A DNA stretch of 63,959 bases, filler included, from Reclinomonas americana ATCC 50394 (lineage: Eukaryota): the NCBI GenBank assembly GCA_048213135.1. It is 38 parts of 38 records of this genome, joined end to end, with 100 filler letters (N's around TTAATTAATTAA, not from the genome) between each part and the next. Parts side by side here need not be neighbours in the genome. Positions count along the whole stretch, not along the records: positions 22,071 to 23,662 come from AFZH01025422.1; 37 more parts are not named here. One strand, 5' to 3'. How positions within the stretch are numbered: the first letter of the stretch is position 1; the number at the start of each line of letters is the position of its first letter. The notes under the pieces are model-generated. The model saw nothing but the letters and a program-made list of their open reading frames with translations, had not been told where the DNA came from and did not search any database. This document shows positions 22,080 to 23,662 of this stretch, piece by piece. The position numbers and the translations under genes were made by a program.

Positions 22080-23662
22080 CCGAGGTCGCCGCGGAGCGTG
22101 ACGAGCTCGCCGAGTGCTTTGCCGCATCTCAAGCCAGAGTCAGGGACATCTCTGACGATTATCATTCGCGCACTGAAGAACTGGCCACCACCCAAGCTGC
22201 CGTCGAGTCGCTCACGGTTAATTGCAATCAGCTCCAACAAGCTCTCGCTGACACTGTGCGTGTCGCACACGTTACCACTGTCGAGAGGAATACTCTTCGT
22301 GAGCTGCTTCCCACGGCAGTGGCTGAATGCGACCAGTTTCAATGGAGGGTGGATGAGATGGAGGGCCAGCTGCGCGCCCTGTTCCACATGGACTTTCTCA
22401 GGTTCCTATTGGACATCATCTTTGCCTCGTGCGCACGACCTTCTTTCTCACTTCTCTGTCAAATGCCACAGCGACCGCCGTCCAATCTTGATGCTCACGG
22501 AAGTCGTGCACGAGATCATTCCACTGGCACTTGGCTCCCTCCTGCAACAACTCGTTGCTGAGTTCTTCCCGGGCGAATTCGACATTGAGCAACTGTGCCT
22601 CCCATCGGTATCTCCACCACCAAGGTGCCTGATTTGTGGTCGAGCTGTGTTGTGCGATCTCCACTCATTCTGCGTGACAGATACTGCCGAATGACTCTGG
22701 ACAAGCGCGGCAACATTCGCATGCGCTCCGTCGAATTGTTCCCTTCCAACCGCGAAGCGATTCGCGAGTTCAAGCGGAGTGGAGTGACTACGGGCATGGA
22801 TGTGTCGCTGCTGAGCACTCTGCTCTTGTACATTACTTTTGTTCCTGTCGCCGCTTGTCGTGACGACGATCTGCTGGAGAGTCGCGTTCGTCTGAATCCC
22901 GTCACAAACGAGGATCGACTGGCGGTGCGCTTGCTTGCTGAGGCCGCGAAGGTGTGGGGGAGTGGAGGGGAGGACAAAGAAGACGCAGGAGTGAAAGGAG
23001 GGCAGCGTTAAGATCTAGAGGAGAACAAGAGAAGGAGAAGGAGAGGAAGGGAAGGAAATAGGAGACCTAAATGATGCGTTTCGTTTACCTTGTAGGTGTT
23101 TTCTTCTTTCACTGTGTGCAAACATCTTCATGCGTTCCTTTAAATTTTATTCTCACTGGATTCTTTCCTTCGAAGATTCGAGCCGTGGAGAGCTTGAGGG
23201 ATGTGCGCCATCGTGTGTCTCACGTGGCCCGTCTTTCCGCACTCGAGGACGCCGAGTATGTGAGCGTCATGCGGCTGGTGCGTGACTCGCTCCACGCACT
23301 GTTCCCCGACGGACAACATGAGAGCATTCGTCTGCTATTTCAAGCATACGAGAGTTGCGTCTGCACTGGCCTTTCGAAGTTTTCTTTCCCCATCTCATTC
23401 TCCTTGAGCACAGATGTGTGTCGCATCAATGTGACGGCCGAGTTGGTGACGGAGAGAGCGGCGAGATTCGCCATCCGCGCACCTGTTGTGCCTTTCTCGG
23501 AGTTTGAACTAACGAAAAGACAGATTGGCAACGGTGAGACCTTCCGTTCTTGCTTGCAGCTGCAGCAGTCGGAGCTCGTCTCATGTATGTCAACACTTGC
23601 AGGCCAGAATGCCGTATTCCACGCAACTCTCCGACTCGGCGGCGAATCGCAGACGGTGGCAT
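22080..23662 (+). CDS. Coiled-coil + DZIP3/Swt1-like HEPN domain + protein kinase N-lobe fusion, multi-exon, partial
   Basis: Inferred introns 22429-22471, 22625-22680, 22952-23175, 23354-23413 and 23534-23602 give one open frame containing MDVSLLSTLL...VESLRDVRHRVSH...EY and then FSEFELTKRQIGNGQNAVFHATLRLGGESQTVA. Confidence 0.65.

Follow-up and report, generated by a model that had tools for sequence, protein, structure and literature searches.

The contig at positions 22,071-23,662 of the window holds a fragment of a multi-exon gene, encoded on the plus strand, whose partial protein has a coiled-coil-like N-terminus followed by an all-alpha region of ~190 residues that is, on balance, most likely a divergent Swt1/DZIP3-like HEPN domain. 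The fragment fills the entire contig (1592 bp) and probably represents a new and highly divergent eukaryotic HEPN protein located on a truncated contig. An earlier note on this DNA had gone further and had proposed a coiled-coil-HEPN-kinase fusion, i.e. a possible inverted version of the RNase L/IRE1 architecture. Below we present the evidence for the gene, for the HEPN-like domain and for the sequence that starts at the end of the contig, and we weigh the different readings of this evidence.

The window, by which we mean the whole stretch of DNA that was analysed (63,959 bases), is not a single locus but is composed of 38 contigs of ~1.6 kb each that are separated by spacers of the form N44-TTAATTAATTAA-N44. 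The assembly is mixed. Eukaryotic-looking contigs are in the majority and include fragments of Utp21, WD40, CCDC47-like and DJ-1 proteins; the contig at 45,643-47,219, which encodes a GH3 glycosidase sharing 80% protein identity with an Agreia record and has a GC3 of 0.85, is a bacterial contaminant. Along their whole length, the members of two contig pairs share 96.3-96.6% identity, as expected for haplotype copies. Neither the Rfam search nor the tRNA search gave any match (0 in both cases), and a search with the CCDC47-like ORF returned no match at E<=1e-5.

Six-frame translation and an explicit gene model show that six exons and five complete GT-AG introns, which are 70, 56, 224, 60 and 69 nt long in this order, give a single stop-free frame of 370 codons that is open at both ends. 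Exon 1 (22,080-22,401, with the frame open from 22,073), recognised by its open frame and coding GC pattern, encodes a helical, coiled-coil-like N-terminal region of ~110 aa and is followed by intron 1 (22,402-22,471). The same types of evidence define exon 2 (22,472-22,624), which encodes the middle domain's first hydrophobic helix (LTEVVHEIIPLALGSLL...) and is separated by intron 2 (22,625-22,680) from exon 3 (22,681-22,951), for which frame, GC pattern and a motif count are available; this exon contains the middle part of the domain, including the motif DVSLLSTLL (22,799-22,825). Intron 3 (22,952-23,175) stands out in composition by its purine-rich 5' half. Exon 4 (23,176-23,353) encodes the HEPN-like active-site helix and the helices that follow it, as judged from profile HMMs, an AF2 model and searches of the ESM Atlas, and includes RHRVSH at 23,206-23,223. 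After intron 4 (23,354-23,413), exon 5 (23,414-23,533) encodes a linker with the C-terminal residues FELTKRQIGNG. Intron 5 (23,534-23,602; GTGAGA..CAG) interrupts a G-x-G motif, and exon 6 (23,603-23,662), which encodes QNAVFHATLRLGGESQTVA, the proposed start of the kinase for which the kinase HMMs gave no support, is cut by the end of the contig. The string IGNGQNAVFHA...GESQTVA extends to the last full codon (23,659-23,661), after which a single base remains.

Several features indicate that this is a good model of a real-looking spliced gene. All six exons share the same GC pattern over the three codon positions (~0.67, 0.42 and 0.64), and reading the joined exons in the other two frames runs into 10 and 15 stops. 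The introns have a GC content of 0.48, and the 3' ends of four of the five are pyrimidine-rich (0.63-0.78), the value for intron 5 being 0.59. The acceptors of the model include CCACAG, GACAG and GCACAG. Because the first nine bases of the contig (22,071-22,079) can be read directly as ending in CCCACAG and resemble these acceptors, they are probably the 3' end of a sixth, upstream intron that is truncated by the contig end. Two points of detail may vary: (i) intron 2 has an in-frame alternative that uses the donor at 22,608 with the acceptor at 22,705, and (ii) introns 4 and 5 are both in frame and free of stops, and it is therefore possible that they are retained. A tblastn search of the gene model against all 38 contigs returned only the match to itself. 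Thus, the five short GT-AG introns that the earlier note had joined into one frame are confirmed, and the peptide strings that it had quoted are all present, with RHRVSH at the position given above.

In the case of the N-terminal region, Ala, Glu, Leu, Thr and Val abound among the 110 residues encoded by exon 1; Pro and Gly together account for 3 of these residues. Matches below the cut-off were obtained with several coiled-coil families (KxDL, E 0.0025; ATG16, 0.0044) and, likewise below the cut-off, with the SMC coiled-coil region (E 0.0012) and PspA (0.0088). The heptad score of this region, an ad hoc score, was equalled by 14 of 1000 shuffled sequences. Exon 1 can fairly be described as coiled-coil-like, which is less than a proven coiled coil.

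PMC3710099 gives the defining motif of HEPN domains as Rx4-6H, in which the R is immediately followed by a polar residue, namely N, D or H. The sequence R-H-R-V-S-H in exon 4 has this form, including the polar residue after the R, but taken alone it is at chance level: when the protein was shuffled 5000 times, R[NDH]x3-5H appeared in 26% of the shuffles, its background rate in six-frame translation is 0.51 per 370 aa, and the protein has a second copy at residue 24. It is hence conceivable, though somewhat unlikely in our judgement, that the all-helical domain of the middle region is an unrelated one in which R-H-x3-H and its L-R-D-V lead-in are coincidental, so that the protein would be an orphan of unassigned fold and no RNase. 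In support of such a coincidence, ~250,000 windows were scanned, and motif matches of this type are expected by chance in a scan of that size.

The sequence around the motif speaks against a coincidence. HEPN_Swt1 (PF18731) domains were sampled from two sets of 401 bacterial genomes, which contained matches in 28/401 and 88/401 genomes, respectively, and two local HMMs were built from 27 and 57 of the bacterial domain segments. Both HMMs place the catalytic segment on residues 252/253-273 of the partial protein (23,176-23,241, entirely within exon 4), exactly on the predicted site and in a register in which the R falls on R262, the N on H263 and the H on H267, with agreement also at the upstream L-R-x-V. 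The scores are 5.9 and 6.3 bits, corresponding to single-target E-values of 0.0011 and 0.0008. Among 5000 full shuffles, only 3-4 reached these scores, as did 3 and 7 of 5000 shuffles in which R, H and H were kept fixed, indicating that the flanks carry signal past the motif itself; it should be borne in mind that these counts overstate independence and do not amount to scan-wide significance, because the site had been picked by a motif-seeking reader across very many windows. None of the 275 background stretches (45,319 aa) reached the score, their maximum being 3.1 bits, and in a blind scan of all six-frame stretches of 25 aa or more in the window (n = 1395) the exon-4 frame ranked first with 8.8 bits, the next stretch scoring 5.1 bits.

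The match is short, which leaves room for the coincidental reading. Only ~21-22 columns around the motif are aligned (hhalign P 0.009, probability 4.5%), the window-wide E-value of the exon-4 match is 0.19 (1395 targets), and neither hmmalign/glocal alignment nor the global mode of hhalign extended the HEPN_Swt1 match past ~21 columns. Likewise, no curated HEPN model matches any of the exon-level pieces: searches of all of them against Pfam, NCBIfam and PADLOC at E<=10 returned no HEPN model and no kinase. These family scans are weak because exons 2-4 each carry a part of the putative domain, in three different frames. The same applies to HEPN_DZIP3 (PF18738; gathering cut-off of 27 bits), for which no exon-level piece, each being only part of the 144-position domain, gave a match at E<=10; PF18738 was also not found in the 401 bacterial genomes searched. 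Exon 2 alone matched no family. A further argument that had been put forward was that the DxxLLxxLL helix of exon 3 is typical of the DZIP3/Swt1-like clade. This motif occurs in 0.4% of 5000 shuffles and is absent from the 45,319 aa of background, values that apply to a motif chosen post hoc, and a sub-HMM of the helix-2 motif of bacterial HEPN_Swt1 domains gave no match on DVSLLSTLL. The clade-typical character of this helix was accordingly not confirmed.

HEPN domains fold as an up-and-down bundle of four helices in which an insert separates helices 2 and 3. The AF2 model obtained from the single sequence of exon 4 (pLDDT 74) contains a helix at residues 2-20, a loop at 21-24 and helices at 25-42 and 49-58, and R-H-R-V-S-H, residues 11-16 of this model, is located in the last third of the first of these helices, an arrangement that is compatible with HEPN but not specific for it. 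The corresponding model of exon 3 has a pLDDT of 54, with two short strands and three helices. The structural comparison with HEPN domains that the earlier note had suggested was made with Foldseek for the 59-aa exon-4 model only; it gave nothing at E<=0.001 and no HEPN match, returning generic helical proteins only (best E 2.3), as would be seen if the domain were an unrelated helical one. By contrast with the latter reading, a named-cluster search of the ESM Atlas with exon 4, which gave a recognition value of 2414 that is above the threshold, yielded three HEPN-related cluster types among its leads. The two best clusters (0.91 and 0.90) are unnamed phage proteins; these are followed by a DUF4559 cluster (0.87), a cluster in which 10% of the members carry PF18738 HEPN_DZIP3 (0.85, 177/256 features) and a cluster in which 20% of the members carry PF18731 HEPN_Swt1 (0.76). 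DUF4559 presumably corresponds to the CXorf38 group, which a 2013 paper is said to have placed in the Swt1 clade. We treat these HEPN-related clusters as weak evidence, that is, as leads only. With exon 3 as the query, the Atlas yielded no usable match.

Searches for relatives found none. In word-indexed searches for longer proteins, exon 3 gave 283 candidates and the segment 23,176-23,535 gave 207, none of which had an E-value <=0.01, and when HMMER was run with exon 3 against the full set of 1.84 billion representative proteins, it returned 0 matches at E<=0.001. Metagenome scans with exons 3 and 4 and a search of viral contigs revealed no relative, and tblastn against phages gave none either. 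The spread of the putative domain over several exons weakens these searches as well. Overall, the motif-level context provided by the Swt1 HMMs suggests that the middle domain is probably a HEPN domain, and the HEPN half of the original claim is supported at this level.

The kinase reading concerns the C-terminal tail, which has the form F-E-L-x-K-x-x-I-G-x-G-x-x-A-x-F-x-A...V-A at the contig end and offers ~20-30 residues on which such a reading can be based. According to this reading, which we consider unlikely, a HEPN-like domain is followed by a kinase or pseudokinase in the same chain, the reverse of the order in Ire1/RNase L, and pairing of the kinase or phosphorylation would control the RNase. 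In its favour, a loose glycine loop followed by V-A is rare, being present in 0.34% of 5000 shuffles and only once in 45,319 aa of background, and the lead-in of the tail resembles that of kinase domains of the TKL or TK type. However, the glycine loop reads G-N-G-Q-N-A-V-F, so that the third glycine is missing and the canonical GxGxxGxV is absent, and the hydrophobic residues ahead of G-x-G are, as we read them, one position off the usual kinase register.

Profile searches do not favour a kinase either. PF00069 Pkinase matches were taken from three and then five prokaryotic genomes for the construction of kinase HMMs. An HMM of 29 kinase domains gave no match at the C-terminus of the protein. 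With an HMM of the N-lobe (beta1 to V-A; 15 prokaryotic kinases), the last 50 residues scored -0.3 bits, a value that was as good in 211 of 2000 shuffles, and 14 held-out kinases scored 39-70 bits with the same HMM; with a 58-sequence N-lobe HMM the tail scored -0.9 bits, 1299 of 5000 shuffles being as good, and only R-Q-I-G-N-G was aligned. Since these HMMs are prokaryotic, they may lack power on a divergent eukaryotic kinase. Searched in its unspliced form (82 aa) against the PDB sequences, the tail returned two weak, irrelevant matches and no kinase, and Pfam found no kinase on the unspliced pieces. A kinase exon elsewhere in the window was found neither by Pfam, applied to 166 of the 232 stretches that run for 110 aa or more without a stop, nor by the kinase HMM over all 1395 six-frame stretches. 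Thus, the assignment of the tail to kinase subdomains I-II, which had been part of the original proposal, is not supported by these tests, in which its scores were at the level of shuffled sequences, and nothing apart from the loose pattern speaks for it.

The proposed kinase is unsupported because the fragment stops after ~20 residues, and the "inverted RNase L/IRE1" architecture is not established because the positions of the catalytic motifs VAxK, HRD and DFG fall beyond the contig end. The domain that starts at the end of the contig could be a divergent kinase, a pseudokinase or something else, and an architecture with a kinase fusion is, in our estimate, distinctly unlikely. A layout analogous to that of MLKL, in which a helical-bundle executioner is joined to a pseudokinase with a degenerate glycine loop and membranes rather than RNA would be the target, has no more in common with the fragment than the broad succession of a helical domain, a linker and a degenerate G-loop, and is very improbable given that there is no family match, that the Swt1-type motif match favours HEPN and that the kinase-like part itself is without support.

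Returning to the preferred reading, i.e. that of a divergent HEPN domain, some functional features can be predicted by analogy. HEPN RNases, among them the KEN domains of Ire1 and RNase L, Las1, Csm6 and Cas13, are endoribonucleases that need no metal, and it takes the pairing of two domains to complete their active site. The putative HEPN site of the fragment is intact, with R262, H263 and H267 of the partial protein forming R-[polar]-x3-H. The protein may accordingly be a metal-independent endoRNase, in which the active site would be completed by two HEPN domains that pair. In this scheme, the coiled-coil-like N-terminus, as the obvious candidate for bringing two chains together, would provide or control the pairing, after which RNA would be cleaved. 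Should the HEPN reading be true, the gene would add another protein to the fast-evolving eukaryotic HEPN proteins, a kind linked to defence or RNA surveillance, and would belong to a lineage without close relatives in the databases searched. Newness of architecture would come only from the fusion to a kinase. The full arrangement of coiled coil, HEPN RNase and (pseudo)kinase, which would amount to an order-reversed, independent reinvention of the Ire1/RNase L logic, is one that we regard as quite unlikely, a shade more so than the kinase fusion as such. Were it true, oligomerisation and a kinase-like module would gate an RNA-cutting effector, perhaps in antiviral or cell-death signalling, and a coiled-coil/HEPN/(pseudo)kinase protein would exist without detectable sequence relatives among 1.84 billion representative proteins.

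Of the known systems, the HEPN domains of the Swt1/Abi2 clade (PF18731) are like the fragment in having an L-R-x-x-R-[N/H]-x3-H helix, then a loop and another helix. Members of this clade in bacteria include proteins in which an N-terminal HEPN domain is fused to a DUF499-type AAA+ ATPase. The fragment differs from the bacterial HEPN_Swt1 proteins in several aspects: nothing aligns outside the ~21 columns around the motif, and the fragment has an H where the family has an N; at least 110 coiled-coil-like residues precede its domain, whereas the bacterial domain starts within ~15 residues of the N-terminus; and the bacterial domain is followed by a Walker-A ATPase, a region that the tail of the fragment does not resemble, as it gave no match with an HMM built from the 300 aa downstream of 49 bacterial HEPN_Swt1 domains.

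The second candidate group is that of the DZIP3/hRUL138-like HEPN domains (PF18738), which, according to Table 1 of PMC3710099, occur in eukaryotic, multidomain, lineage-expanded proteins and have a motif that is "mostly conserved". The likeness of the fragment to this group consists of the one Atlas lead cluster in which 10% of the members carry PF18738, set against the absence of a Pfam match on the exon-level pieces. Animal TRADD-N proteins have N-terminal HEPN domains and are without kinases, as described in PMC8195603. The HEPN architecture table of PMC3710099 lists no DZIP3/Swt1-type HEPN domain N-terminal to a kinase, and full-text literature searches returned no description of a eukaryotic HEPN domain, DZIP3/Swt1-type included, in this position relative to a protein kinase.

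The comparison with Ire1 and RNase L concerns the order of the domains. In PMC3710099, the KEN domain is described as a circularly permuted HEPN domain, and the kinase is listed in front of it in the architecture of this family. Ire1 and RNase L thus have a kinase or pseudokinase and then the KEN domain, whereas in the fragment the putative start of a kinase comes after the HEPN-like region. If the tail were indeed that of a kinase, the likeness to Ire1 and RNase L would lie in an RNase and a kinase that are present in one chain, with an RNase that is likely to depend on dimerisation.

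The window consists of 38 contigs, each of about 1.57-1.60 kb, which are strung in order of decreasing length and separated by spacers of the form N44-TTAATTAATTAA-N44. Because it is thus a chain of separate contigs, genes that face each other across a spacer are not genomic neighbours. Two pairs of contigs (20377-21970 with 3407-5009, and 23763-25351 with 6809-8405) are 96.3-96.6% identical over ~1600 bp and, judging by this similarity, are probably haplotype copies; a DJ-1/PfpI gene is present on one of the two pairs. A third pair, 18682-20276 and 55696-57269, lies in opposite orientation and shares 81% identity over 1264 bp. 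No such partner was found among the window's contigs for the one that carries the partial spliced gene with the HEPN-like motif (22071-23662).

The contig preceding the latter along the window contains a tandem repeat at 21784-21893 (7.9 copies of a 14-bp unit, AAGGAGAAGGGTTG), located immediately beyond a GT donor-like site where a long ORF ends. The 5' half of intron 3 of the spliced gene (22952-23175) is likewise purine-rich.

The assembly is mainly eukaryotic, and contig 45643-47219, as assessed from its sequence, is a contaminant from a bacterium. It encodes, on the minus strand, a GH3 glycoside hydrolase (45644-47134) with 80% protein identity to an Agreia sp. record, many further actinobacterial matches and a GC3 of 0.85.

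Right-handed beta-helix domains are encoded by two long, intronless ORFs, one at 37243-38820 (plus strand), together with NosD and Chlam_PMP repeat domains, and the other at 40739-42181 (minus strand). Finally, an open frame of 529 aa at 3-1589 (plus strand) gives a below-threshold match to Phage_integrase, a tyrosine recombinase domain (E 0.0002; 21.5 bits versus a cut-off of 27.1), and this frame may represent a Crypton- or DIRS-like mobile element.
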